Both the position numbers and the translations under genes were made by a program. Positions 1 through 23,173 of a DNA stretch of 24,000 bases are shown here, piece after piece. Source of the DNA: Anaerolineales bacterium (GTDB lineage: Bacteria > Chloroflexota > Anaerolineae > 4572-78 > J111); assembly GCA_020634855.1 (NCBI GenBank), contig JACKAU010000008.1, positions 360,503-384,502 on the forward strand, written 5' to 3'. A model generated the notes under the pieces. The model did no database searches. It saw only the letters and a list, made by a program, of their open reading frames with translations, and had not been told where the DNA came from. Within the stretch, counting starts at the first letter, position 1. Every line of letters starts with the position of its first letter.

Positions 1-822
1 CTAGCCCTTAATAAACGCCAGCAAGTCGGCGTTGAACTGATCCTGATGGGTCACCGTCAGGCCGTGCGGTGCGCCCGGATAGACTTTTAGCGTCCCTTGG
101 GGGACAAGTTCGATGGTACGCATGGCCGACGCGCCGATGGGCACGATCTGGTCGTCGTCGCCGTGGATGATCAACGCCGGTACATCCATCCGCTTGAGGT
201 CCTCGGTAAAGTCCGTTTCGGAGAATTGCTTGATGCAGTCATAGGCCCCCTTGATGCCGCTCATCATGCCTTGCAGCCAGAAGTAATCGCGGACGCCCTC
301 CGATACCTCCGCCCCGTCCCGGTTGTAGCCGTAGAACGGCAGGGTCAGCTCTTTGAAGAACTGCGACCGGTCGTTGTAGACCCCCTGACGAATACCGTCG
401 AACGCCTCAAGCGGCAGACCTCCCGGATTATCTTCCGTCTTCAACATCAGCGGCGGCACCGCCCCCACCAGCACCACCTTGGCCACCCGCGAGGTGCCGT
501 GGCGGCCGACGTAGCGAGTCACTTCCCCGCCGCCCGTCGAATGCCCAACCAGCACCACGTCCTGCAAATCCAGCGCTTCGATCAGCTCGGCCAGGTCGTC
601 GGCGTAGGTGTTCATGTGGTTGCCGTGCCAGGTCTGGTCCGAGCGACCGTGACTGCGCCGGTCGTGGGCGATGACCCGATAGCCTTGCTGCCCCAGGAAC
701 AGCATTTGCCCGTCCCAGGCGTCGGCGCTGAGCGGCCAGCCGTGGCTAAAGACGACAGGTTGACCAGACCCCCAGTCTTTGTAATAGATTTGTGTACCGT
801 CTTCTGTAGTGATCCTGCTCAT
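1..822 (-). CDS. alpha/beta-hydrolase, non-heme haloperoxidase / arylesterase family
   Basis: Complete 273-aa ORF with TAG stop at 1-3. AAGGAG lies 7 nt upstream of the ATG at 820-822. Nucleophile elbow GHSTGG is present, with C-terminal [10 protein letters not shown] and PGAPHG motifs. The N-terminus [19 protein letters not shown] is typical of the cofactor-free chloroperoxidase/esterase family. Confidence 0.9.
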
Positions 823-928: not shown

Positions 929-1909
929 CTATCGAGCAAACGCATGGCGTAGCGCTGCCCCGACCTGAACCGTAGCCGCCCGTGTGGCCGGAGTCTCCGC
1001 CAGAGCGTTGAGTACCATAAACCCGTGGATGGTGCCGAGATAACGGGTGGCGGTGACGACAACGCCCGCTTCGATCAGCTTGCGGACATAGGCCTCACCC
1101 TCATCACGTAGCACATCATTTTCGGCGGTGATCACCAGAGCCGGGGGCAGCCCCTGCAACTGCGTCACCGACGCATGTAAGGGCGAAACGGTCGGCTGCT
1201 GGCGTAGATCGGCGGCTGCATAGCTATCCCAGTAGTAGGCCACGCTCGCCGCTGAGAGCCAGTAACGGCCATCGCCATACTGGTGATAGGAGGCATAGCC
1301 CGGTAGTTGGGCGTCGGTTGCCGGATAGAATAAAGCCTGAAAATCGATCTTAGGCCCTTGGCGCTCCTTAGCCAGCATCGTCACTACAGTCGCCAAGGTG
1401 CCGCCCGACCCATCACCGGCCACCGCCAGCCGCGAGCTGTCAACCCTGATCGTCGCGCCGTGTTCCGCCACCCATTCGATGGCGCTGTAAGCTTGTTCAA
1501 CCGCTATGGGATACCGTGCTTCAGGCGAACGATCGTAGTGGACAAAAATGATGGTCGTCTGGGTGATGTTCACCAGCTCGCGTATCAGCCGATCGTGGGT
1601 ATCCGCATCGCCCATGACCCAGCCGCCGCCGTGGAAGTATATCACCCCCGGCAGCAGGCTTGAATTACCGGGCGGGCGAACGATCCGCAGTTCGATTGAC
1701 CCGGTCGGGCCGGTCTGAATCGTCATATCCTCAATCGTCGCCGGGAGCTTACCAACGTGGCTGTCGGCCTGAAGCTGCAAGAACCTACTGCGGGCATCCG
1801 CCGGGTTCAGCCTATGGAGCGGCGCACTACTCTGCGCTTCAAGAGAGCGTAAGAATGCCAGAGTACCGGATTCAAGGAAAGCCGATCGGCCATCGCTGCT
1901 ACTATTCAT
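929..1909 (-). CDS. alpha/beta-hydrolase fold-3 (HSL / family IV) esterase-like protein with atypical nucleophile elbow
   Basis: Oxyanion motif FHGGGW, acid motif ENDVLRDEG and HGF histidine motif are present. The elbow reads GDGSGG instead of GDSAGG. The track ORF extends to 2002, but the ATG at 1907-1909 (MNSSSDG...) is preceded by AAGGTGG, so I prefer that start. Confidence 0.85.
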   Translation of the reverse strand: MNSSSDGRSAFLESGTLAFLRSLEAQSSAPLHRLNPADARSRFLQLQADSHVGKLPATIEDMTIQTGPTGSIELRIVRPPGNSSLLPGVIYFHGGGWVMGDADTHDRLIRELVNITQTTIIFVHYDRSPEARYPIAVEQAYSAIEWVAEHGATIRVDSSRLAVAGDGSGGTLATVVTMLAKERQGPKIDFQALFYPATDAQLPGYASYHQYGDGRYWLSAASVAYYWDSYAAADLRQQPTVSPLHASVTQLQGLPPALVITAENDVLRDEGEAYVRKLIEAGVVVTATRYLGTIHGFMVLNALAETPATRAATVQVGAALRHAFAR

Positions 1910-2021
1910 GTATACCACCTTAAGACGGAAGGTGTCTTTATCCGTCGTCGCCGTCTCACATCCTAAACCGCATAGGACGTGGTCGTGAACGCAATCGAGC
2001 ACACTTCCCGGTTAACGAAAA

Positions 2022-2051
2022 TTGGACGAAACATCTGCCTGTAACTACAAT
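2022..2051 (+). promoter_or_regulatory. candidate sigma70-like promoter for the giant STAND gene
   Basis: TTGGAC (2022-2027), 18-nt spacer, TACAAT (2046-2051). Pattern match only. Confidence 0.25.
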
Positions 2052-2109
2052 ACTACATGATAAAAAGGCCGTTGTCAGTGTGTCCAAGTACGCACTTGAC
2101 CGAGCCTTG

Positions 2110-2130
2110 GGTGTGCAATAGGTGTGCAAT
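2110..2130 (+). repeat. tandem direct repeat GGTGTGCAAT x2 at 11-bp spacing, possible operator
   Basis: GGTGTGCAAT occurs at 2110-2119 and 2121-2130, separated by one A. It lies about 40 nt upstream of the start of a gene whose first domain is an XRE-type HTH. Confidence 0.3.
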
Positions 2131-2157
2131 TTGACGCCTCCTCACCAGAGGCGTCAA
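2131..2157 (+). promoter_or_regulatory. leader hairpin abutting the Shine-Dalgarno sequence
   Basis: TTGACGCCTC (2131-2140) pairs with GAGGCGTCAA (2148-2157), a 10-bp perfect stem with a 7-nt loop. AGGGGAG and the ATG at 2169 follow immediately. Confidence 0.35.
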
Positions 2158-2168
2158 GGGGAGTGGAT

Positions 2169-5100
2169 ATGGCATCGAAGCAAGCTTACCCAAGCCGCGA
2201 CTATGCGGTTAGTCAATATTTGCTGACGCTTCGAAGCCGAGGCCAGCTAACCCAAGCGGCGCTGGCCGACCGGATCGGCGTCCACCGCCGCAGTGTGCAA
2301 AAGTGGGAAAGCGGCGAGACTTACCCCACCGCCGACAACCTGCGCACCCTAATTGCCGTCTTGCTGCCGCTAGGCGCATTTACACCGGGCCGGGAACGGG
2401 CTGAAGCCGCCGACCTGTGGCAGCAGGTCAGCCAAAATGCGCCGCAGCCTCTACCCTTCTTTGATACGGCCTGGTTCGACCAACTGATGACCGGTTCCCC
2501 CGCCCCCGGCCGCGGCCCCGCCTCAAACACCGCCACCTTTCCGCCGCCGCCTGATCAAACCCCGGCGCGCCGCGAACGGCAGATAACTCCGCCCCTCCCT
2601 TTTGTACCAACTCCGTTGATCGGCCGCAGTAATGAGTTGGCCAAGATAGCCCAAATTCTGGACAATCCGGCCTGTCGCTTACTGACCCTGCTGGGGCCGG
2701 GCGGCATTGGCAAAACGCGTCTGGCGCTGGAAGTCGCCGCTGGCCAAACCGGCGTCTTCAGCGATGGCATCGCCTTTGTGCCCCTCGTCTCCGTCGGCAA
2801 TCCCCACCAGATCGTCTCGGCCATTGGCGACGCGCTTAATCGCTCCTTCGCCGGGCCGTCCGACCTGCTCGCCTACCTGCGCGAGCGGCATATGCTGCTG
2901 CTGCTCGATGACTTCGAGCATCTGCTGGACGGAGCCGATCTGATCGCCGGCATGCTCCAGGCGGCTCCCCGGCTGACAGTTCTCGTCACCTCCCGCGCCC
3001 GGTTGAACCTCCAGGCGGAATGGCTGTTTGACGTGGAAGGACTGTCCTACCCGCCCGCCGAATCGTTTGGCTGGAGCATCTGGCACAGTGAGACGGACCC
3101 GACCGACTATGGCGCGGTTCAGCTATTTGTGCAGCGAGCCACCCAGCTTCAGCCGGGCTTCCCCCTCACCGAAGCCAGCCTGACGCCGATTATCCATATC
3201 TGCCAGCACGTGGCCGGCATGCCCTTAGCCATTGAACTGGCCGCCGCCGGGGTGCGCTTGCTGCCGGTGACCGACATCGAGCAGCAGATTCGCTCCAATC
3301 TGGACACGCTGGCCACCACCCTGCGCGATGTGCCGCTGCGCCATCGCAGCATGCGGGCCGTGTTCGACCACTCCTGGAACCTGCTGAATGAGCCGGAGCA
3401 GGCGGTGTTTAGCCGGCTGGCGGTCTTTCGCGGCGGTTGGGATCAGATGGCCGTGGAAGGCATCTGTGCGGAGGTAACCGGACACACCGTCGCCGATAAA
3501 CATGAGGCGCGAGATATGCCGTTTTTGTCTCACACGGTTTCCCCGGCGCTATTGGCCTCACTGATCGACAAATCACTGGTCCGACGAAGTAACGGATCGA
3601 CTGGACCGGCCGGCGAGTCCGGCCGGCTGAACGCCTCAGTTGGGGCGCGCTTCGTTTTACTGGAGCCAATCCGCGAGTACGCCCTGGAGCAGTTGGCGGC
3701 TCGGGGCGAGGCCAAGACGCTGCGGCGCGCCCATGCCCACTACTACTTGGCGCTGGCCGAAGCGGTAGACGCTCACTGGGATAGCCCCACCGCAGACACG
3801 GCCATCGAGCAGATTGATCGCGACTACGACAACCTGCGCGCGGCCTTGCAGTGGGCCAGTGACAGCGGCGACGTGCTGCTGGGGCTTAAATTGGCCGGCG
3901 CGCTGTGGCGCTTCTGGCGGCGTCGGGGCTACATTAATGAGGGACGGACCTGGCTGGAGGAGCTGTTGGCCGTAGCCGGCGATCCGCCCGACGCGGCGGC
4001 GGCGGCCGTCTGGCTGCGGGCGATAAACGGCGCCGCCTGGTTAGCCTCTTACCAGCACGATTTTGCCCACGCCGCCCAAATCTTTGAGCAGAGTATGGCT
4101 CTGCGCCGGGAGTTGGGCGAGCTAAAGGGCGAGACGAGTCTGCTCGACAACGCGGCCCGCGCCTGGCGCTCCGCCGGGCAGTACCGGCGCGCGATCCCGC
4201 TGATGGAAGAAGCGCTGGCCCAACACCGCGCGCGGGGCAATCGGGGCAGCCTGGGCGCCGGCGGCCTCGGTTTTTCGCTCTATGAGTTGGGCTTAGTGCT
4301 GCGGGAGCAGGGTGACTTTGCCCGCGCCGCCGATCTATTTGATGAGTGTGTTACCTTTCACCGCACCCTGGGTGACCGCGAGGGCATGGGCATTGCCCTG
4401 CTGGGGCTGGGCGACGTCGCCCGGGACCAGGGCGACATCGCCCCCATTCGTAAGTATAGCCAGGACAGCCTGACCATCTTACGAGAGCTGGGGGTGCAGT
4501 GGGCCGTCGGTTTTGCGCTCAATAACCTGGCTGTGGCCGCTTATTTGGAGGGCGACTTGCCCCAGGCGCTGACCCTGGTCAACGAAAGCATTACGCTGTA
4601 CCGGGCCCAACAAGCCGAGGCCAGTCTGGCCGAAATATTGGTCACCTTGGGCCATATTCTACGGGCGCAGGGTAACGTGGCTGCCGCTCACGCCGCGCTG
4701 ATTGAGGCGCTGCGGCTGGCTCAGGCCGTTGGCCCGCGCCTGTTTGTAGCGGCGGCCTTGGAAGGGCTGGCCGGCCTGGCCAGCCAACCGGGCCAGTCGG
4801 CGCTGGCGGTCCGCCTTCTGGGGGCAGCGTCCGCTTTGCGAGAGCGCATGGGCACCCCGGTGCGGCCGGTCGATCAACCCGACCTGGAGCGGCGGCTAGC
4901 CGCGACGCGGGCGCACCTGGGCGCCGATGCCTTTGCCGAAATATGGGCTGAGGCCGAGGCCCTGCCTTTGGGCCAGATCATTATTCCCGACGCCGCCGCG
5001 TTTGCCGCCGGCGCTCTCCCCTCCGATGCGCCCCAGCAAGGGATCAAACTCACCCACTATGGCCGGCAGCGGGTCGATTGGGGGCTGGCCCAGGACGCAC

Positions 5101-8100
5101 CGACGTTGTACGGCCGGGCAACGGAGTTGGCTATGCTGACCCGCTGGGTGATCGAAGACGACTGCCGGGTCATTACTCTGGTGGGCATTGGCGGCATCGG
5201 CAAGACCAGCCTGGCCGTTGCCCTGGCCCGGCAGGCGGCCCCTCACTTTGAGGCCGTCGTCTTTCGCTCTCTGGGCGAAGCCCCCCCGTTCCCGGAACTG
5301 CTTGACCAGCTCATCCACCGCGTCGCGGCCCAGCAGATTGTGCCCCCGCCGCAGCCGGCCGATAAGCTGGCCCTCCTGGTCGATTTGCTGACCGAGACTC
5401 GCTGCCTGCTCGTTCTGGACAACCTTGAATCGCTGATGAAGGCCGGCACCGCGACCACCCAATATCTGGCCGGTTATGAGGATTATGCCGTCCTCTTCCG
5501 GCAGTTGGGCGACGCCGCTCACCAAAGTTGTCTAATCCTGACCAGCCGCGAACGGCTCAGCGAATTGGCCGCGCTGGAAGGCCCCCACGCCCCGGTGCGC
5601 ACCCTGCGGGTAACCGGCCTGCCGGAAGACGCCTGCCGGGCGCTGCTGGCCGACCAAGCCCTGACCGGCACCACGGGGGATGCCTCGGCGCTGGCCCGGC
5701 GGTACGGCGGCAACCCACTGGCCCTCAAGCTGGTGGCCGAGCCGATCCGGGCCGTCTTTAACGGCGACATCGTCGCCTTTTTGACCGAGGGGACGTTGTT
5801 TTTCGAAGGGGTCAGCCAACTGCTGGAACAGCAGATCAGCCGGGCGTCGGCCCTGGAACAGGCGCTGCTGGCCTGGTTGGTTATTGGCCGCGAACCGGTG
5901 ACGCTGGATCAGTTGATGGCAGATTTGCTCGACGGCCCCAGCCGGGCCGCCGTTCTGGCCGCGCTGCACGCGCTGTGGCGGCGCAATCTGGTTGAACGGG
6001 GTCCGCAGAATTTGACCTTCACCCTCCAGCGGGTGGTGATGGAGTATCTAACCCAGCGCCTGATCGAGCGCGCGGCGGACGAGATCGAGCAGGGGCGCTT
6101 CGATCTACTGGTCAGCCATGCCCTGAGCCAGGCCACCGCTAAGGATTATGTGCGGCGCAGCCAGGAGTGGCTGATCGTCACGCCCTTGCTAAAACGCCTG
6201 ACGACGCTCTACGGCAGCCCGGAGCAATTGGATCAGCAGCTCCGCACCCGGCTGGCCGCTCAGCGTGACCGGCCGCTGGAGGCCCAGGGCTATGGACCCG
6301 GCAACCTCATCAACCTGCTGCGGCTGCTGCGCGGTCACCTGCGCGGCCTCGATCTGGCCCGGTTGGCTATCCGGCAGGTCTACCTGCAAGGCGTGGATCT
6401 ACACGATACCAGCCTGGCCGAGGCAACCATTCAAGACAGCCCCTTTACCGAAACCTTTGGGGCGATGACGGCCGTGGCCATCAGCAGTACCGGCGCTTAC
6501 TGGGCCGCGGCCAGCCGGTGCGGTGAAATCCGCATCTGGGCCGCGGCCGGGCAGACGCCCTACCGCGTCTGGGAGGCGCATACGGCCAGCACCTGGGACC
6601 TGGCCTTCAGCCCGGATGGCCGCACCCTGGCCACCGGCAGTTGGGACGGCACGGTTAAGTTGTGGGATATTGTCACCGGGGCGTTGTTGTGGTCAAGTGG
6701 CCATACCGGCCACATTCAACGGGTGACGTTTACCCCGGACGGCCACCGGCTGGCCGCCAGCGGCGGCGAGGCCACCGTCTGGATTTGGCATACCCAGGCC
6801 GGCATGGAGCCGCAGCTTCTAACCCATCCGGGAACGGTGACGGGCATCGCCTGGAGTCCGGACAGTCAACTCCTGGCCACCGGCGACCGGCGCGGAACCG
6901 TTCGCTTATGGGCCATGCCCGAGACAGAGCCACCCGTCTGCCGGCGCACGCTCACGGGCCACACCAACGCCATCACCGGGCTGGCCTTTGCCCCTGACGG
7001 ATACACTCTGGCCAGTAGTAGTTGGGACGGCACGGTCAAACTGTGGGATATGACGGCCCTCCTGCCGTCGACGTCGCTCGGGGCAGACCCGTCGGCGTCA
7101 CTGCATGAGGACGGGGTCGATGAACCACTGCTGCAGACGCTGACCGGACACACCGACCGGGTGATCCAGGTGGCCTGGAGTCCCGACAGCCGCATCCTGG
7201 CCACCGGCGGGCATGACCAGACGATCTGGTTGTGGGATGTCGAGCGGGGCCGCTATCGAACCGTGCTGCAAGGCCACACCGGCGGTATCTGGAGCCTGGC
7301 CTTTACTCCTGACAGCCGCAGCTTGCTGAGCGGCGGCGAAGACGGCACGCTGCGGCAGTGGGACGTGGCCAGTGAACAGTGTATTCGCATCATCCAGGGC
7401 TACACCGTCTTGCTGTACGATGTTGATTGGAGCCCGGACGGCGGGCAGTTGGTCAGCGGGGGCGCCGATGCGGGGGTTACTATTTGGGATGCCGCCGGCC
7501 AGACGCCACCCCACCTCTTGTATGAACAGCGTGGCAGCGTGTTCGGCGTGAGCTGGAGCGCCGACGGCCGGTGGATCGCCAGCAGTGAGTGGGGCAGTAC
7601 CATCCATTTACGGGACCCGGTATCGACTGAGCAGCAACTGTTAACCGACCCGAATGATGAGGGCAACTGGCTCTATGGATTGGCCTGGAGTCCGGATGGG
7701 CAGCGACTGGCCTGCGGCACGTACCGCCAGGGCGTCCATGTCTTTGAGCCGGCCGCGAACCGTCCACCCTGGGCCGGCACGCCGTTACCGAGCTGGATCC
7801 GGCTGGTGGCTTGGAGTCCGGACGGCCGGCAGTTGGCCGGCGGGGGCGATGACGGGATGGTTAACATTTGGGATGCGACCGACGGCCGGCTGCTCCAGCG
7901 GCTGGCCGGCCACGACAACTTGGTGACCGGTCTGGCCTGGAGCCTGGATGGCGCGCTGCTGGCCTCGGCCGGCGGCGGCCCGGCGGGCGGTGAGTTATGG
8001 GTATGGGATATCCGGCGCGGTGAGCGCCGGCAAACCTTTGAGGCTCCTTCCGGTCTGGTGTCAGCCGTGGCCTGGGGTCTCAATGAGGCGATGATCATTA

Positions 8101-8399
8101 GCGGCGGCGGCGACGGCATGCTGTGCTGGTGGGATTTACAGCGGGGCGAGCGCCGGCACATCCGCCAGGCTCATAAAGGCACAGTGCAGTCACTCAAGCG
8201 CAGCCCCGATGGAACCCAGTTGGCCAGTTGCGGCAACGACGGCGCGATTGTGGTGTGGGATTTGCACCGGGCCGAGCCGCTGCACACCCTCCGCCGCGAC
8301 CGCCCCTACGAACGGCTCAACATCACCGGCAGCCACGGCCTGACCGAAGCCCAGCGCACCACTCTCCGGGCGCTCGGCGCGGTTGAGTTCCAACGGTGA
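2169..8399 (+). CDS. giant STAND-class protein: XRE-HTH / NB-ARC-like NTPase / TPR array / second NB-ARC-like NTPase / pentapeptide-like linker / 14 WD40 repeats
   Basis: Single uninterrupted frame. The track starts at GTG 2124, but ATG 2169 has an AGGGGAG SD, so I prefer it. HTH (LTQAALADRIGVHRRSVQKWESGE) is at about nt 2202-2369. Module 1 has Walker A GPGGIGKT at 2694-2717, Walker B LLLLDDFE at 2895-2918, LVTSRARL, and GMPLAIELAA. TPR-like helical repeats span about 3711-4973. Module 2 has Walker A GIGGIGKT at 5184-5207, Walker B LLVLDNLE at 5406-5429, LILTSRERL, and GGNPLALKLVA. WD40 blades span about 6459-8288, with 14 units of the type SPDG...GTVKLWD. Confidence 0.9.
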   Translation: MASKQAYPSRDYAVSQYLLTLRSRGQLTQAALADRIGVHRRSVQKWESGETYPTADNLRTLIAVLLPLGAFTPGRERAEAADLWQQVSQNAPQPLPFFDTAWFDQLMTGSPAPGRGPASNTATFPPPPDQTPARRERQITPPLPFVPTPLIGRSNELAKIAQILDNPACRLLTLLGPGGIGKTRLALEVAAGQTGVFSDGIAFVPLVSVGNPHQIVSAIGDALNRSFAGPSDLLAYLRERHMLLLLDDFEHLLDGADLIAGMLQAAPRLTVLVTSRARLNLQAEWLFDVEGLSYPPAESFGWSIWHSETDPTDYGAVQLFVQRATQLQPGFPLTEASLTPIIHICQHVAGMPLAIELAAAGVRLLPVTDIEQQIRSNLDTLATTLRDVPLRHRSMRAVFDHSWNLLNEPEQAVFSRLAVFRGGWDQMAVEGICAEVTGHTVADKHEARDMPFLSHTVSPALLASLIDKSLVRRSNGSTGPAGESGRLNASVGARFVLLEPIREYALEQLAARGEAKTLRRAHAHYYLALAEAVDAHWDSPTADTAIEQIDRDYDNLRAALQWASDSGDVLLGLKLAGALWRFWRRRGYINEGRTWLEELLAVAGDPPDAAAAAVWLRAINGAAWLASYQHDFAHAAQIFEQSMALRRELGELKGETSLLDNAARAWRSAGQYRRAIPLMEEALAQHRARGNRGSLGAGGLGFSLYELGLVLREQGDFARAADLFDECVTFHRTLGDREGMGIALLGLGDVARDQGDIAPIRKYSQDSLTILRELGVQWAVGFALNNLAVAAYLEGDLPQALTLVNESITLYRAQQAEASLAEILVTLGHILRAQGNVAAAHAALIEALRLAQAVGPRLFVAAALEGLAGLASQPGQSALAVRLLGAASALRERMGTPVRPVDQPDLERRLAATRAHLGADAFAEIWAEAEALPLGQIIIPDAAAFAAGALPSDAPQQGIKLTHYGRQRVDWGLAQDAPTLYGRATELAMLTRWVIEDDCRVITLVGIGGIGKTSLAVALARQAAPHFEAVVFRSLGEAPPFPELLDQLIHRVAAQQIVPPPQPADKLALLVDLLTETRCLLVLDNLESLMKAGTATTQYLAGYEDYAVLFRQLGDAAHQSCLILTSRERLSELAALEGPHAPVRTLRVTGLPEDACRALLADQALTGTTGDASALARRYGGNPLALKLVAEPIRAVFNGDIVAFLTEGTLFFEGVSQLLEQQISRASALEQALLAWLVIGREPVTLDQLMADLLDGPSRAAVLAALHALWRRNLVERGPQNLTFTLQRVVMEYLTQRLIERAADEIEQGRFDLLVSHALSQATAKDYVRRSQEWLIVTPLLKRLTTLYGSPEQLDQQLRTRLAAQRDRPLEAQGYGPGNLINLLRLLRGHLRGLDLARLAIRQVYLQGVDLHDTSLAEATIQDSPFTETFGAMTAVAISSTGAYWAAASRCGEIRIWAAAGQTPYRVWEAHTASTWDLAFSPDGRTLATGSWDGTVKLWDIVTGALLWSSGHTGHIQRVTFTPDGHRLAASGGEATVWIWHTQAGMEPQLLTHPGTVTGIAWSPDSQLLATGDRRGTVRLWAMPETEPPVCRRTLTGHTNAITGLAFAPDGYTLASSSWDGTVKLWDMTALLPSTSLGADPSASLHEDGVDEPLLQTLTGHTDRVIQVAWSPDSRILATGGHDQTIWLWDVERGRYRTVLQGHTGGIWSLAFTPDSRSLLSGGEDGTLRQWDVASEQCIRIIQGYTVLLYDVDWSPDGGQLVSGGADAGVTIWDAAGQTPPHLLYEQRGSVFGVSWSADGRWIASSEWGSTIHLRDPVSTEQQLLTDPNDEGNWLYGLAWSPDGQRLACGTYRQGVHVFEPAANRPPWAGTPLPSWIRLVAWSPDGRQLAGGGDDGMVNIWDATDGRLLQRLAGHDNLVTGLAWSLDGALLASAGGGPAGGELWVWDIRRGERRQTFEAPSGLVSAVAWGLNEAMIISGGGDGMLCWWDLQRGERRHIRQAHKGTVQSLKRSPDGTQLASCGNDGAIVVWDLHRAEPLHTLRRDRPYERLNITGSHGLTEAQRTTLRALGAVEFQR

Positions 8400-8985: not shown

Positions 8986-11334
8986 TTATTGGAGACGGTC
9001 TTTGATAGGTCTGCTCGACCACCCGAACCAGTTGCGCAAACCAAATTTAACCAAGTCATGACTTTTGACCATAATCACGGTCGTCAGCGCCTCTTCGGCG
9101 ACGCGCTGCGGAATAGACCCAAACAAGGATTGCTCCAACAGCCCCTCCTTGGTAGCCCCGATGATAATCTGGTCAAAGCTGGCGGCTTCATCCAAAATAC
9201 CGCGAACAATATCATCGGCCTGCCTTAAGCGTAATTCAAGAGGCAAGGTATCGATGTCAAACTCGTGGATCAATGCCTGGCGGCGCTGTTCCAGGCTGTC
9301 GCCGTTGGCCCCATCCAGGATAAGATTGAGGGCGACCACCTCGGGTCGTTTGCCGTCGCGCTGCTCATAAGCATCGGCCTGGGTGACCGCTAATTCCAGC
9401 GCCAGCCGGGTATTCGGCCCGCCGGCGACCGGCACCAAGATGTGGGCGGGCGGCCCGGTTCGCCGGATGCGCACCACGGCCAGATCGCAAGGCGGGTTCT
9501 TGGCCATCAAATCGATGATCGTTCCGAAGGCTTCTTCCTTTTGGTGCGGAATGTGAGCCGGCCAACCCAGGACCATCAAATCGGTTCGGCGCTCACGGGC
9601 GACGCTGATGATCGAGTCGCCCACATTGCGCCCCAGGCGCAGCATAGACCTGACCGGTACGTGATAATCTTGAACAATGTCGCTGATTTCTTCCAGAAGC
9701 GGCCGGCCCTGCCGCAAAAAGGTCCGACCATCATTGATGCCAATCTGGCGGGGTACGCGGATGACATGCAGGGCAAACAGCTCGCCGTGGTTGGCTTGAG
9801 CCACCAGCGCCCCCAACTGGGCTAACGGGCGGGCGGCGGCCACGTTGGCCACGGGCAGCAAGACGGAATAATCGCGGGCCACGACGGTCTCTTCATACAA
9901 GACCGTGTCTTCGGTTTTGCTGGCCTCTTGCACCGCGCCGTGCTGCCGATACACGAATATCCCCAACAGCAGCCAGAAGATGGTCACCACCCAGGCCAGC
10001 GGGCTTAGTTGAAACAGCTCAACGGCCAGAACCAACATCACGGCGATACTAAAATATTGCAGCCAGGGGACAAACGGCGCCCGGAACGGCCGGGGCAGAT
10101 TAGGGTGCGTCTTGCGCATCCGAATCAGGGCGATGTTGACCATCAGGAAGAGTAACAAAAAGGTAATCGACGCTCCGGACGCCACATCTTCGATGGGCAG
10201 CCAGATGGCCATAAAGATGATCAGCAGGCCGCTAAGCCAAATGGCCCAGTGCGGCGTTTTATTGCGGGGGTGAATGCGGCCAAAGACGGCCGGTAAATCG
10301 CGGTCGCGCCCCATGGCAAACGAGACCCGGCTGCTGGAGTAGACGGTGGCGTTCAAGGCCGACATCGTCGAGGCCAACCCGCCCAGGATCATAATCAGCG
10401 CGCCATACGGCATAATGGACCGGGCTGTTTCGATCATCGCCCGTTCGCCGTTTTCGCCCAAATAGACCCAGTTGGGCAGCCCGGTATCTTGTTGGAGCGC
10501 GCCGATCGAGACAAAGGCCACCGCCAGATAAACCACCACCACAATGGCGATGGCCAGGAAGATAGCCCAGGGAATATTGCGGCCGGGTTCCTTCACTTCT
10601 TCACCGCTCTGAGCAATGATTTCGTAGCCTTCAAAGGCTACAAAGGTCAGGCCCATAGCCAAAATCACCCCGCCGATACCGTGGGCCAGTGGACTGGGAT
10701 CGTTCAAGAAATTATCGCCCCAGTTGGGGATGTTGCGCATGGCCAGCAGACCAAACAGTACCAACAGGCCCAGCACCACAATCTTGAAGACCGTAATAAT
10801 GTTACCCACCAGGCCCGTTTCTGATGAACCCCGCACGTTGATCAGGATAAACGTCAGCGCCACCAGCGCCGCCAACAACTTTACGGCCAACGCTTCCCCG
10901 CTCAGGCCCAGAGCTATCGCCTCATCGCCAAACTCCAGACCGGCCAATTCGATCAGCTCGATGAAGAAGGTGCCAAACAGAACGGCGTACAGGCTGCACG
11001 CCACCGAGTGGGAAAACCACGACACCCAGCCGGCGTAGAAGCCAAAGATCCGGGCCAGCCCTTCTTTGACCCAAGCGTAACCGCCCCCGGCCTGCGGGAA
11101 GGCCGCCCCTAATTCGGCATAGGTTAAGCCGGTCAGGCTGGTGACCAGCCCATTGAGAAAGAAGGCCAGCAGCAAGCCCACCGGCCCGGCCTCCCCGGCG
11201 GCGATACCGGTCAGGCCGAAGATGCCCGCCCCGATCATCGCCCCCACTCCGATCATGGTCACATCGAATAAGCCCAGGTTTCGGCTAAGCGAAACCTGAA
11301 ACCGTTTTGAAGTTGTTTCTTCAGACATCGTCAT
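8986..11334 (-). CDS. APC-superfamily amino-acid permease fused to two C-terminal universal-stress-protein (Usp) domains
   Basis: The N-terminal ~480 aa are polytopic and hydrophobic, with a GVGAMIGAGIFGLTG motif. The C-terminal ~300 aa contain two Usp-like units (VLLPVANVAAARP... and ILVPVAGGPNTRLALELA...). The track ORF begins at 11388, but ATG 11334 (MTMSEE) follows GGAGA by 9 nt, so I prefer it. Confidence 0.85.
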   Translation of the reverse strand: MTMSEETTSKRFQVSLSRNLGLFDVTMIGVGAMIGAGIFGLTGIAAGEAGPVGLLLAFFLNGLVTSLTGLTYAELGAAFPQAGGGYAWVKEGLARIFGFYAGWVSWFSHSVACSLYAVLFGTFFIELIELAGLEFGDEAIALGLSGEALAVKLLAALVALTFILINVRGSSETGLVGNIITVFKIVVLGLLVLFGLLAMRNIPNWGDNFLNDPSPLAHGIGGVILAMGLTFVAFEGYEIIAQSGEEVKEPGRNIPWAIFLAIAIVVVVYLAVAFVSIGALQQDTGLPNWVYLGENGERAMIETARSIMPYGALIMILGGLASTMSALNATVYSSSRVSFAMGRDRDLPAVFGRIHPRNKTPHWAIWLSGLLIIFMAIWLPIEDVASGASITFLLLFLMVNIALIRMRKTHPNLPRPFRAPFVPWLQYFSIAVMLVLAVELFQLSPLAWVVTIFWLLLGIFVYRQHGAVQEASKTEDTVLYEETVVARDYSVLLPVANVAAARPLAQLGALVAQANHGELFALHVIRVPRQIGINDGRTFLRQGRPLLEEISDIVQDYHVPVRSMLRLGRNVGDSIISVARERRTDLMVLGWPAHIPHQKEEAFGTIIDLMAKNPPCDLAVVRIRRTGPPAHILVPVAGGPNTRLALELAVTQADAYEQRDGKRPEVVALNLILDGANGDSLEQRRQALIHEFDIDTLPLELRLRQADDIVRGILDEAASFDQIIIGATKEGLLEQSLFGSIPQRVAEEALTTVIMVKSHDLVKFGLRNWFGWSSRPIKDRLQ

Positions 11335-11445
11335 AGGTGTGTATCTCCATTTTTGGCTTGGTGCGGTCCGGTTGTCCGAAACCGGCATGTTTGGGGAATG
11401 GCAGCGCCGTGATGACCGCGGTCACGGTCGATTGACGCTGAAGAG

Positions 11446-11474
11446 ATGATAAACCAAGAGGGGTAAATCATCAA
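11446..11474 (-). promoter_or_regulatory. candidate sigma70-like promoter for the permease-Usp gene
   Basis: The minus strand reads TTGATG (plus 11469-11474), a 17-nt spacer, then TATCAT (plus 11446-11451). This predicts a leader of about 105 nt containing two short hairpins. Confidence 0.3.
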
Positions 11475-11512
11475 GTCCCACTCTCGGCGACATTGTGCTT
11501 ACGGAAAGTCTC

Positions 11513-11547
11513 AAGACCTCATAGGTTTTGGAAACCTATGAGGTCTT
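11513..11547. repeat. perfect 16-bp-stem palindrome of the AGACCTYATAGGTTT family
   Basis: AAGACCTCATAGGTTT (11513-11528), TGG, then AAACCTATGAGGTCTT (11532-11547). Confidence 0.9.
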
Positions 11548-11683
11548 ACCGCTTCGGCAACGGGGGCGGATGGCGGCGGTATTGTAGGGCATGGCGGGGT
11601 TCTCCCTGTCTCCTATCTGCTTCTCCAGCAGTCACAAGCCATTTGCTGTTTCAAGCTGGGCAACGTACGCAGCTCTCTACTGA

Positions 11684-11740
11684 CAAACTCGCATTACACC
11701 ACGTCAAAGCCCTGTTCTCAGCCGGTGTAATGCGAGTTTG
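11684..11740. repeat. 17-bp perfect inverted repeat with 23-nt loop
   Basis: CAAACTCGCATTACACC (11684-11700) pairs with GGTGTAATGCGAGTTTG (11724-11740). Confidence 0.85.
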
Positions 11741-11761
11741 ACCGGGGCAAAGTATTAGTTT

Positions 11762-11792
11762 CACCCGGTCAAAGCAATACTTTGACCGGGTG
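11762..11792. repeat. 13-bp perfect hairpin with 5-nt loop
   Basis: CACCCGGTCAAAG (11762-11774), CAATA, then CTTTGACCGGGTG (11780-11792). A competing upstream partner TTTGACCGGG lies at 11737-11746. Confidence 0.85.
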
Positions 11793-11853
11793 GACTCGGC
11801 TGGGTTTCGCTATGGTGTTGGCTATAGGCTCAACTCAACCTACAACTACCATA

Positions 11854-11950
11854 AGACCTTATAGGTTTCCAAATGGCCTTTGAGACAACGCAATTTTCCA
11901 ATTGGAATAGGAGCATTATGGAAATTAGCACTCAGAAACCTATAAGGTCT
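11854..11950. repeat. 97-bp MITE-like element bounded by 16-bp perfect inverted repeats of the AGACCTYATAGGTTT family
   Basis: AGACCTTATAGGTTTC (11854-11869) pairs with GAAACCTATAAGGTCT (11935-11950). The 65-nt core contains the 12-bp palindrome TTCCAATTGGAA (11896-11907). Confidence 0.6.
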
Positions 11951-11964
11951 GGCCTCAGTCTCCG

Positions 11965-12729
11965 CTACGCCAACAACTGATACCCGCCATCAATGGTAAT
12001 CGTCTGGCCGACGATCATGGTGTTGGCTTCGGAGCAGAGGAAGGCGACGGTGCGGGCGATGTCTTCGGGGGTAACTAAGCGGCCGGCCGGGGTGCGTTCG
12101 GTGGCGATGTGGATGATGGCTTGCAGATCAACGGGGAAGGCGTTGATGGCGTCGGTCTCGACCAGACCGGGCGAGAGGGCGTTGACAATGATACCCTTGG
12201 GGGCCAACTCGACGGCCAGGTAGCGGGTCAGCGACTCGACCACGGCTTTGGACAGGCCGATGGCGACATAGTGCGGCAGCACGCGCCGGCTACCGGGGCT
12301 GCTGATGGTCACAATGCGGCCCCAGTGGTGGCGATCCATCAATGGTATGATGCGTTGGATGCAGTGCAAAATCGAGCGGGCGTTGACGTCCATGGTCCAG
12401 TCCCAATGCCGGTCGGTTAACTCCAGCGCGTCTTTGGGCGTGCCGGTGGCAGCGTTGCCGATAAAGATATCGCAGCGACCAAAGGTCTCATCGACCGTTT
12501 CGAATAGTTGGTTGACTTTGTCGATATCGGCCAGGTTGGCGCTGACGGCGATGGCTTGGCGGCCCATCCCTTCGATTTCGGTTACGACCTCGTTGGCCGC
12601 ATGTTTTTTGCGCAGGTAGTGAACCACGATGTCGGCCCCTTGCCGGGCCAACTCCAGGGCAATGGCCCGCCCGATACCTCGGGACGAACCGGTGATGAGA
12701 GCAACTTTGTTTGCAAAGGGTAAATTCAT
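11965..12729 (-). CDS. fabL: classical SDR oxidoreductase, FabL-like enoyl-ACP reductase (NADPH)
   Basis: 254 aa with cofactor motif ITGSSRGIGRAIA. The stretches ETFGRCDIFIGNAATG, RHWDWTMDVNARS and LTRYLAVELAPKGIIVNALSPG closely resemble my recollection of Bacillus subtilis FabL. That recollection was not checked by alignment. Confidence 0.6.
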   Translation of the reverse strand: MNLPFANKVALITGSSRGIGRAIALELARQGADIVVHYLRKKHAANEVVTEIEGMGRQAIAVSANLADIDKVNQLFETVDETFGRCDIFIGNAATGTPKDALELTDRHWDWTMDVNARSILHCIQRIIPLMDRHHWGRIVTISSPGSRRVLPHYVAIGLSKAVVESLTRYLAVELAPKGIIVNALSPGLVETDAINAFPVDLQAIIHIATERTPAGRLVTPEDIARTVAFLCSEANTMIVGQTITIDGGYQLLA

Positions 12730-12765
12730 AGCAGTTATAGGATCGAGGACTTATTAGCCTCAAGC

Positions 12766-12820
12766 TAGGGCGTAGGGCGTGGTGCGTATTGACCGCAGCA
12801 AAACTACGCCCTACGCCCTA
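12766..12820. repeat. 15-bp perfect inverted repeat between the pmm-like and fabL-like genes
   Basis: TAGGGCGTAGGGCGT (12766-12780) pairs with ACGCCCTACGCCCTA (12806-12820). Each arm is itself a tandem TAGGGCG heptamer. No U-tract follows on the minus strand. Confidence 0.8.
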
Positions 12821-22354: not shown

Positions 22355-23173
22355 ATGTCAATGATATCAGCTAAAGCACAGGATGCCTCGGAAAAGTTTC
22401 AAGTCCCTGCCCTGGCCAAGGGATTAGATATTTTGGAGACGTTGGCTTTTGCCCTAGAGCCGCAATCGCTGACCGATTTGGCTCGGACTTTGGGGCGAAG
22501 TAAAAATGAAATTTTCAGAATGTTGGGCTACCTCGAAGCGCGTGGCTATATCGTCAAAGAGGAAAGATCGGGGAATTATTATTTATCGTTAAAACTTTAT
22601 GAACTGGCCCACACCCATACTCCCATGGAGCAGCTCTTGAAGGTAGCTACCCGCCCGATGGAAGAACTGGCTCGAGAATTGGCGCAAACCTGCACCCTAA
22701 ACGTACTACACCACTATCATGTCATCGCGGTTGCTCAGGCCCTTAGCCCCAGACGAGTGCGGTTATCTTTTGATTTAGGCCGACCTTTTTCTGTCGTCTA
22801 TTCTGTATCAGGGCGATTGCTTTTGGCTCAGTTTTCAGAGGATGATCAGACGGCATTTCTTGACCGGGTGCCCGATTATCAAGCACTAGATAAAATGGAG
22901 CAAAAAGCCTATAAAGCCAAACTTCATGACATACAGGAAAAGGGCTACGCCTTCGCGGTGAGTGAATGGTATGAGGGGGTTGAAGACATATCGGTTTTAG
23001 TTGGCAATGCCAACGCGGGTCTAATGGCGGCTTTAACCGTGCCCGGCTTCAAGTCAACCCAACGCCCCTGGGATTTTGATAAAATACTCGATGCGTCACA
23101 GCAGTGCGCCAATAGGATCATCGAGGCCGTTGGCCTAACCCCAGGTTCGCCCGTATTTAGTCAGGTCGGCTAA
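22355..23173 (+). CDS. IclR-family transcriptional regulator
   Basis: 272 aa. The N-terminal winged HTH reads LAKGLDILETLAF...QSLTDLARTLGRSKNEIFRMLGYLEARGYI, followed by a C-terminal IclR effector-binding domain pattern. Confidence 0.9.
   Translation: MSMISAKAQDASEKFQVPALAKGLDILETLAFALEPQSLTDLARTLGRSKNEIFRMLGYLEARGYIVKEERSGNYYLSLKLYELAHTHTPMEQLLKVATRPMEELARELAQTCTLNVLHHYHVIAVAQALSPRRVRLSFDLGRPFSVVYSVSGRLLLAQFSEDDQTAFLDRVPDYQALDKMEQKAYKAKLHDIQEKGYAFAVSEWYEGVEDISVLVGNANAGLMAALTVPGFKSTQRPWDFDKILDASQQCANRIIEAVGLTPGSPVFSQVG

Follow-up and report, generated by a model that had tools for sequence, protein, structure and literature searches.

The analysed stretch (hereafter the window) comprises 24,000 nucleotides of the genome of an Anaerolineales bacterium of the phylum Chloroflexota (contig JACKAU010000008.1 of assembly GCA_020634855.1, positions 360,503 to 384,502). 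It contains a gene for a STAND protein of probably 2076 residues, in which two complete NTPase-sensor modules follow a single N-terminal helix-turn-helix (HTH) domain. Genes for alpha/beta hydrolases diverge from this gene, and a conserved DNA element with four direct repeats lies upstream of its start. The protein is predicted to be a transcription factor that acts on the hydrolase genes through this element. STAND transcription factors are already known, and the accepted picture of a STAND/NLR protein has a single switch, a single sensor and a single output. The protein is composed, in order, of an XRE-type HTH, an NB-ARC-type NTPase (NOD1), a tetratricopeptide repeat (TPR) domain, a Pro/Ala-rich linker, an NB-ARC/NACHT-type NTPase (NOD2), 14 WD40 blades and a conserved C-terminal tail. 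The gene and its parts are as follows.

2124 to 8399, plus strand: open reading frame, free of stop codons throughout
2169 to 8399, plus strand: whole STAND gene, 2076 codons and a stop, from ATG 2169
2208 to 2384, plus strand: XRE-type HTH DNA-binding domain, residues 14–72 (Pfam HTH_3 E 5e-9 at residues 27–65; HTH_31 E 9e-7; HTH_3/HTH_31 region residues 16–65)
2601 to 3803, plus strand: NTPase module 1 (NOD1), residues 145–545, with P-loop nucleotide-binding domain (NBD), helical domain and winged-helix domain
3804 to 4973, plus strand: TPR sensor 1, residues 546–935, about 9–10 helical hairpins (Pfam TPR_12 E 4e-25, TPR_10 and, weakly, TPR_MalT)
4974 to 5090, plus strand: inter-module linker, residues 936–974, Pro/Ala/Ser-rich, poorly conserved
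5091 to 6320, plus strand: NTPase module 2 (NOD2), residues 975–1384
6321 to 6443, plus strand: bridge between NOD2 and the propellers, residues 1385–1425, conserved (61% mean identity to the query in 40 homologues)
6444 to 8303, plus strand: WD40 sensor 2, residues 1426–2045 (Pfam WD40 E 2e-103 and many beta-propeller families)
8304 to 8396, plus strand: C-terminal tail RPYERLNITGSHGLTEAQRTTLRALGAVEFQR (also given as RPYERLNITGSHGLTEAQRTTLRALGA), residues 2046–2076, 64% mean family identity

Translation likely starts at ATG 2169, which is preceded by the Shine-Dalgarno sequence AAGGGGAG. In the orthologue P0001, the start falls on the aligned ATG. The product is taken as 2076 residues because the Shine-Dalgarno sequence and the ATG are conserved in L081, the locus of a 69%-identical orthologue and the closest one, and the protein called there begins at the aligned Met. 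The gene is monocistronic, with divergent genes upstream and a convergent gene downstream. A previous reading of this DNA from its letters alone (the sequence-only reading) had described an uninterrupted frame of about 2076 residues at 2169–8399 without co-oriented partner genes. Both statements hold, but partners do exist, in the form of the divergent hydrolase genes. Horizontal transfer of the gene was considered, as its GC content is 0.66 and that of the flanks 0.55–0.60. It was rejected because the GC content at third codon positions (GC3), 0.78, fits the 0.73–0.80 of the neighbouring genes, so that the excess reflects amino-acid composition.

Pfam was run on pieces of the protein, since the WD40 repeats swamp a scan of the whole chain. 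The HTH, TPR and WD40 assignments of the sequence-only reading were matched by HTH_3, TPR_12 and WD40, respectively. Apart from NTPase and repeat domains, the HTH is the sole domain in these scans, as expected from the claim that it is the only N-terminal output domain. Fourteen WD40 blades could be placed by their [ST]PDG-type motif between residues 1439 and 2012, which would suffice for two seven-bladed propellers. Since the blades share a mean pairwise identity of 27% and a maximum of 50%, they are old and have not been recently amplified. The bridge between NOD2 and the propellers looks pentapeptide-repeat-like, judged by eye from the sequence and not by a profile.

Domain conservation was computed as mean identity over an alignment of forty proteins with the same module order (type A). 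The values are 53% for the HTH, 63% for NBD1, 56% for the TPR, 51% for NBD2 and 49% for each half of the WD40 region. The C-terminal tail is better conserved than the propellers, and no Pfam family covered it in the scans of the protein. The linker averages 27% identity, against 49–64% for the domains; it varies from about 20 to 80 residues across the 40 homologues, is always in frame, and leads into a conserved (R)VDWGxAxxVPxLYGR sequence.

Each module has a full set of NTPase motifs, and all eight motifs quoted in the sequence-only reading were located. In module 1, these are GPGGIGKT at residue 176, LLLLDDFE at 243, LVTSRARL at 272 and GMPLAIE at 350, which contain the Walker A motif G176–T183 (K182), the Walker B motif LLLLDD (243–248), the sensor-1 TSR (274–276) and the GxP motif (350–352). 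Their counterparts in module 2 are GIGGIGKT at residue 1006, LLVLDNLE at 1080, LILTSRERL at 1122 and GNPLALK at 1181, with Walker A G1006–T1013 (K1012), Walker B LLVLDN (1080–1085), sensor-1 TSR (1125–1127) and GxP (1181–1183). Across 62 sequences of type A and of the permuted type B described below, Walker A (GxGGxGK[ST]), Walker B (hhhhD-D/N-x-E), the TSR sensor-1 and GxPLA are conserved to at least 90% in both modules. The NB-ARC profile of Pfam matches module 1 with 25.5 bits (cut-off 23.5). A piece covering module 2 (residues 961–1420) is matched by NACHT with 34.5 bits (cut-off 26.7) and by NB-ARC with 32.0 bits (cut-off 23.5), confirming the second P-loop region as an NTPase domain.

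Searches of solved structures with a single sequence gave no useful match, and a profile was required. The NOD2 profile retrieved the plant CNLs Sr35, MLA13 and ZAR1, together with AfsR (E 6e-7), RPP1 and PH0952. An AlphaFold2 (AF2) model of NOD2, with a predicted local distance difference test score (pLDDT) of 75.7, matched WRR4A, RPP1, NRC2, Roq1, CED-4, ORC/Cdc6 and MalT (8bob) in Foldseek with E values of 3e-6 to 3e-5. The model of residues 1–975 has a mean pLDDT of 72; the TPR reaches about 90, the NOD part is patchy and the linker falls below 50. The best match of this N-terminal half in the PDB is PH0952 (6mfv), an archaeal STAND NTPase-TPR protein (E 6e-9), and Foldseek relates the TPR region to the TPRs of LGN/Pins, KLC and NprR. 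Both modules thus have the motifs and the predicted fold of STAND NTPases of the NB-ARC clade. NOD1 and NOD2 resemble each other only distantly, with a similarity of about 1e-8 over the P-loop region, which argues for a fusion of two STAND lineages and against a recent internal duplication.

Homologues were sought among 5.8 billion proteins, and five segments of the query were mapped onto the best 120 matches. Full-length relatives of about 2000–2125 residues, with 100% coverage and 45–69% identity, come from ENA, JGI, NCBI and Logan assemblies. Those with a name are metagenome-assembled genomes (MAGs) of Chloroflexota, from Anaerolineae, Caldilineaceae and Roseiflexaceae. In these 120 matches, at least 40 full-length proteins have the query's order HTH-NOD1-TPR-NOD2-WD40 (type A). 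Nearly as common is the permuted order HTH-NOD2-WD40-NOD1-TPR (type B), found in at least 21 full-length proteins (P0009, P0010, P0016, P0018, P0019, P0022–P0024, P0027–P0030, P0051, P0055–P0060, P0062, P0077 and P0078; loci L001, L086 and L087).

The family also bears on whether the gene is real. The junction between the modules had been put near nucleotides 4970–5090, and the linker (4974–5090) occupies the same coordinates. This segment is low-complexity and GC-rich, and an assembly error, a frameshift in sequencing or the loss of a stop codon could in principle have joined two adjacent genes there, although no positive support for such an event was found. The same fusion is present in 40 assemblies from all four sources, with linkers that differ in length and sequence, and the reverse-order fusion occurs as well. 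Because the linker varies in length and is always in frame in forty type A proteins, a chimeric assembly or a lost stop cannot explain the junction. By this comparison of at least 40 independent homologues, the artefact is refuted for the family, and its probability for the window is close to nil.

Other relatives have lost or gained modules. Four proteins (P0069, P0071, P0073 and P0079; type C) retain only the P-loop domain of NOD1, about 155 residues long and placed directly before NOD2-WD40, so that their two Walker A motifs are about 180 residues apart. P0079 (L082 5038–9285) occupies a locus orthologous to that of a full type A gene. It is one of two tandem family members in L082 (5038–13993); the other, P0074, is type A-like and ends inside NOD2, a DUF6174 gene lies between them, and each has one copy of the upstream element described below. 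A protein from an Anaerolineae MAG (L014 90–4880) apparently has the order HTH-TPR-NOD2-WD40 without NOD1, the HTH ending at residue 105 and the TPR starting at 109. One relative among the best 120 matches is HTH-(NOD1-TPR)x2. Giant relatives of 2800–3400 residues with three or four NOD modules are found among P0063, P0083, P0096, P0097, P0101, P0106, P0107, P0115, P0119 and P0113–P0116. P0096 and P0106 consist of four NOD1-TPR units. Some giants begin with a SARP/BTAD or a protein-kinase domain, and P0097, P0101, P0107, P0115 and P0119 combine SARP/BTAD with three NODs. In still other relatives, of about 2060 residues, HTH-NOD1-TPR is followed by a second P-loop and an adenylate-cyclase domain. 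The architecture is therefore not singular but that of a populated family.

Neighbour-joining trees place the NOD1s of types A and B in one clade, apart from single-module relatives; the NOD2s of types A, B and C group in the same manner. The trees, which are rough, imply two or more origins of type C, and the number of module-order swaps cannot be read from them. Among the matches listed, single-module NOD2-WD40 proteins of about 1200 residues and 37–44% identity are abundant in filamentous cyanobacteria (genome scan with the NOD2 alignment), and single-module NOD1-TPR proteins of about 900–1200 residues and 31–39% identity are abundant in soil metagenomes (scan with the N-terminal half). The two halves are thus each common alone, as had been claimed. 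The tail motif NITGxxGLTxAQxxxLxxLGA ends 22 of the 74 single-module NOD2-WD40 proteins among the matches listed, both cyanobacterial and from Chloroflexota. The permuted proteins P0009 and P0010 keep this NITG...LGA tail internally, as the linker between WD40 and NOD1. A tail that ends single-module proteins and lies inside type B proteins is the expected residue of an end-to-end fusion of complete genes. These alignments indicate that an HTH-NTPase-TPR regulator and an NTPase-WD40 protein were fused end to end to give this protein.

The DNA upstream of the STAND gene is conserved between loci whose STAND proteins share merely 49–69% identity. The following features were recognized in this region, the last of them at two loci that lack the element.

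2046 to 2127, plus strand: conserved cis-element, with TACAAT at 2046–2051, the invariant TGTCAGTGTG at 2073–2082 and four GTNYGC direct repeats
2078–2083, 2088–2093, 2111–2116 and 2122–2127, plus strand: the GTNYGC direct repeats, spaced by 10, 23 and 10–11 bp
2131 to 2157, plus strand: perfect 10-bp inverted repeat TTGACGCCTC-N7-GAGGCGTCAA, directly 5' of the Shine-Dalgarno sequence
L084 7827–8000, L085 4829–5003 and L085 7731–8000: alternative upstream block ATTAGCRATCARTGCAGC...

The 10-mer TGTCAGTGTG occurs in 11 copies in nine related contigs, the window included, against 0.02 copies expected per 24 kb; it was found in none of 163 other loci. Of the 11 STAND genes examined that have the query's order or are truncated derivatives of it, 10 are preceded by the element. 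With this 10-mer as an anchor, the repeats start at +5, +15, +38 and +48/49, with the same geometry in all instances, and a ATACAATAC block lies 22–30 nucleotides upstream of it. On the minus strand, a -35-like CTGACA within TGTCAGTGTG is followed after 17 nucleotides by TAGTAT in the window (TAnnnT in the family), directed into the divergent gene. The four direct repeats are located immediately upstream of the -35-like box. Two copies of the element are without an adjacent STAND start: one (L169 12024) precedes an operon of Abh5/6 and Abh1 hydrolase genes, the other (L167 8019) a cluster gene of 179 residues. Because these two copies precede cluster genes and not STAND genes, the element appears to belong to the promoters of the hydrolase cluster. 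We propose that it is a candidate promoter and operator of the hydrolase genes and a site of autoregulation. Over the whole window, GTRYGCA is as frequent as chance predicts (13 occurrences, 13.3 expected), so only the clustering of the repeats and their conservation across loci carry weight.

An RNA element was considered for the conserved leader and rejected as unlikely: an Rfam scan of the leader gave no match, and RNAalifold gave 12 pairs with zero compensatory changes. A DNA element is preferred. The inverted repeat at 2131–2157 may serve as a hairpin in the leader or as a further operator. L081 retains it in shortened form (GATGCC/GGCATC), with C>T and G>A changes that compensate each other, and it is absent from the other loci.

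The recognition helix of the HTH in the window protein is GVHRRSVQKWESG. The form HRRS(V/I)QKWE is present in this protein and in eight element-carrying relatives, in seven of which all four sites, or most of them, read GTGYGC; P0004 (L168) has a degraded form. In P0043, the helix reads SRRSIQKWE and the repeats are altered to GATCGC, GTTCGC and GTACGC. The 45–50% identity subgroup without the element has SRR(S/A)VGEWE. This pattern is suggestive of covariation between the recognition helix and the repeats, confounded by phylogeny. The STAND gene encodes the only regulator found in all nine element-carrying contigs.

The neighbouring genes in the window are listed here.

1 to 822, minus strand: alpha/beta hydrolase of Abhydrolase_1 type (Pfam E 2e-33), second gene of the divergent pair, its 3' part beyond the window start
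929 to 2002, minus strand: alpha/beta hydrolase of the hormone-sensitive-lipase (Abhydrolase_3) family (Pfam E 4e-68), divergent from the STAND gene
8986 to 11388, minus strand: amino-acid permease fused to a universal stress protein (Usp) domain, 800 residues, convergent and downstream

The hydrolase at 929–2002 matches the NCBIfam LipP1-like model at E 4e-88 with 295 bits, under the cut-off of 350, and its true start is probably near 1906. Its orthologues adjoin the STAND genes of L081 (85% identity) and L084 (48%). The hydrolase at 1–822 is 68% identical to L082_274, which also adjoins a homologous STAND gene. Beyond the permease-Usp gene lie sugar-metabolism and ABC-transporter genes. Between 21500 and 23000 the GC content drops to 0.43–0.45, against about 0.55–0.60 elsewhere, and an open reading frame at 22355–23173 (plus strand) has a GC3 of only 0.51, a composition unlike the remainder of the window.

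The window was compared with nine further type A loci, including that of the type C derivative in L082, and with three type B loci. Divergent alpha/beta-hydrolase genes lie upstream in nine of the ten type A loci (the window, L081, L082, L083, L084, L085, L168, L169 and L170). The contig of the tenth, L167, ends 0.9 kb upstream of the STAND gene. The type B locus L001 has divergent hydrolases as well. These hydrolases form three orthologue groups common to several loci, Abh3, Abh1 and Abh5/6, and the downstream genes are different in every locus.

In several loci, a small gene of 158–198 residues is immediately divergent (L083 9256–9753, L168 6273–6794, L169 2683–3279, L082 4224–4700 and L167 8245–8742); the window does not contain it. 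It matches only the N-terminal 140 or so residues of ISAzo13-family transposases (E 1e-18 to 1e-21). Because the DDE domain is lacking, it looks like a domesticated transposase DNA-binding domain. L084 and L085 have small divergent HTH_23 (136 residues) and GerE (82–84 residues) genes ahead of the hydrolases. In L085, a single-module HTH-NB-ARC-TPR gene (908 residues) lies directly upstream on the same strand. In L167, the STAND gene is followed at a distance of a few kb by a gene resembling a class II lanthipeptide synthetase (9530–12778; DUF4135 and LANC_like, 1082 residues), which is located just past the second copy of the cis-element.

The protein is proposed, with a probability of roughly 0.5, to be a STAND-family (NLR-like, NB-ARC clade) transcription factor similar to MalT, GutR and AfsR, with two sensor-switch modules, that acts on the divergent hydrolases through the four-repeat element. 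In the resting state, each NTPase would be ADP-bound and held closed by its own sensor. A ligand on the TPR and/or WD40 sensor would permit ATP binding and oligomerization of the NOD modules, and several N-terminal XRE-HTH domains would be clustered as a result. The clustered domains may then bind cooperatively to the four direct repeats, which lie on the same face one helical turn apart. Occupancy of the repeats would activate the hydrolase promoter. It is also proposed to damp transcription of the STAND gene, because the repeats lie in the leader of that gene.

Two sensor-switch modules in one chain would allow two signals to be integrated. Since the HTH is N-terminal whichever order the modules take, the two NODs probably act in one assembly and not in series. 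An AND gate, an OR gate and a sensor-helper pair are possible alternative logics for them. Tentatively, and at odds well short of even, the protein may be a natural single-chain pair of NLR-type switches, in which different NODs co-assemble into a stacked double ring or a mixed ring, compute on two sensor inputs and give transcription as output. If so, paired sensor/helper NLRs would have a bacterial equivalent in this protein, and the relatives with three or four modules would extend the same logic. The two module orders and the natural deletion variants would be a ready-made series for dissecting how NODs cooperate.

Several observations weigh against a transcription factor acting through the element. 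The promoter boxes are matches to consensus only, and Chloroflexota promoters are poorly characterized. The loci are homologous, so the 11 copies of the element and the linkage of the genes are not independent observations. The 45–50% identity subgroup (L084 and L085) has no element and instead carries the block ATTAGCRATCARTGCAGC... upstream. L086 and L087, two loci with the permuted order, show a weak link to hydrolases or none. The usual targets of XRE HTH domains are inverted repeats, to which they bind as dimers, and not direct ones. Finally, the small ISAzo13-N-like HTH protein is the immediate divergent gene in four loci and could itself bind the element. Some of these points lead to another explanation, namely that the element is the target of another regulator or merely a strong promoter, that the STAND protein acts elsewhere or solely on itself, and that the linkage to hydrolases is inherited synteny with no regulatory role. 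Small HTH genes (ISAzo13-N-like, HTH_23 and GerE) do adjoin the element in several loci, all loci derive from one ancestral locus, and direct repeats are unusual for XRE domains. However, no small HTH gene is present in the window, L081 or L170, and the STAND gene remains the sole regulator common to the nine element-carrying contigs. The recognition helix changes where the repeats change, and the linkage to hydrolases has been kept where downstream synteny has wholly decayed. This explanation is considered rather improbable.

The sequence-only reading had left undecided whether the protein is a transcriptional or an immune sensor. The operator-like element, the conserved divergent hydrolase cluster and the lack of a specific PADLOC match now favor the transcriptional side. 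An NLR-like immune or conflict sensor would detect invader proteins with its WD40 and TPR domains and would turn on, through the HTH, lipase/esterase-type hydrolases as cell-damaging effectors, a transcriptional output replacing the fused enzymatic effector. In multicellular bacteria, TPR- or WD40-bearing STAND proteins are a typical feature of conflict systems, and HTH domains are counted among the non-enzymatic effector modules of such systems (PMC7159879; PMC8195603). The family is confined to filamentous-type Chloroflexota, with cyanobacterial relatives, and a TIR_2 gene and an Mrr gene lie near L084 and L083, respectively. On the other hand, the curated anti-phage models of PADLOC (Avs, bNACHT and others) gave no specific match to the STAND protein, only generic ones to the HTH (RmrA), the TPR, the WD40 region (repeat model HEAT-ARM_XIII) and the P-loop (TRIP13, IetA). 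The sensors are not hypervariable (TPR 56% and WD40 49% identity, against 51–63% for the NTPases), and the WD40 blades are old. Pfam scans revealed no fused enzymatic or pore-forming effector domain. The gene lies in one conserved orthologous locus and not in a variable island; its neighbors in the window are hydrolase, permease, sugar-metabolism and ABC-transporter genes, which do not make up a defence island. An immune role therefore appears unlikely. The proposed transcription factor might also contain a single working switch, with one input, the other module having only a structural or regulatory part, for instance as a pseudo-switch or docking platform. Truncated relatives are tolerated, as the repeated origin of type C and the apparent absence of NOD1 in L014 indicate, and the AF2 model of NOD1 contains low-confidence stretches. 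Against this stands the conservation, to at least 90%, of the four motifs of each module (Walker A, Walker B, sensor-1 and GxP) across the 62 sequences, which are 45–70% identical, together with the equal overall conservation of the modules and the persistence of both orders. We regard a lone switch as improbable too.

In the literature searched, which did not reach key subscription reviews, no description was found of bacterial tandem-NOD or tandem NB-ARC STAND proteins, of their permuted and multi-module forms, or of the predicted operator and regulon; the only examples are from plants. The bacterial family described here is conserved; its chains contain two complete switch-sensor modules (as many as four in relatives), which occur in both orders, and it has a predicted operator and target genes. 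The family offers a tractable system for how NOD modules cooperate. At present, work on signal integration within one oligomer focuses mainly on NLR pairs and tandem NB-ARC NLRs of plants. The candidate regulon, with three alpha/beta-hydrolase groups under predicted four-repeat control, would join those of the few non-immune bacterial STAND regulators (MalT, GutR and AfsR). In Chloroflexota genomes, annotations such as 'AAA family ATPase' and 'tetratricopeptide repeat protein' mask this architecture.

The N-terminal half shares its layout of HTH, NB-ARC-clade NOD and TPR with GutR, the glucitol regulator of Bacillus subtilis, and with other HTH-NB-ARC-TPR activators, and is likened to them by layout. 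The predicted role, activation of an adjacent catabolic gene set, is also alike. GutR is activated by inducer and then ATP, as cited in PMC10936776. It has one NTPase and one sensor, whereas the window protein adds a second complete NTPase-WD40 module. AfsR of Streptomyces (SARP-NOD-TPR; PDB 8k60 and 8jke) has a homologous NOD, recovered by the NOD2 profile, and the NCBIfam AfsR model matches the TPR part at E 4e-20. The direct repeats that AfsR recognizes are spaced by 11 or 22 bp, and the upstream one overlaps the -35 box (PMC10936776). Such repeats, one or two helical turns apart, have the same geometry as those of the candidate element. However, the DNA-binding domain of AfsR is of the SARP/OmpR type and not an XRE-HTH, and AfsR has a single NOD and no WD40 domain. 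MalT, the activator of the maltose regulon in E. coli, shares a STAND NTPase and a helical-repeat sensor, and binds arrays of repeated boxes cooperatively after inducer and ATP. It differs in belonging to another STAND clade, with a C-terminal LuxR-type HTH and one NOD.

The C-terminal half, an NB-ARC-type NOD with two predicted WD40 propellers after it as in Apaf-1, resembles that protein and bacterial, including cyanobacterial, NB-ARC/NACHT-WD40 proteins. Single-module relatives of this kind among the matches listed are 37–44% identical and share the NITG...LGA tail. These proteins contain one NOD and a short N-terminal domain, in some cases an HTH. In Apaf-1, the effector is a CARD and the blades number 7+8. 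Plant tandem NB-ARC NLRs such as wheat WTN1 and rice Pib likewise unite two NB-ARC modules in a single chain. In contrast to the window protein, these are eukaryotic, have LRR sensors and adjacent duplicate NB-ARCs without an intervening sensor, and give an immune output and not DNA binding.

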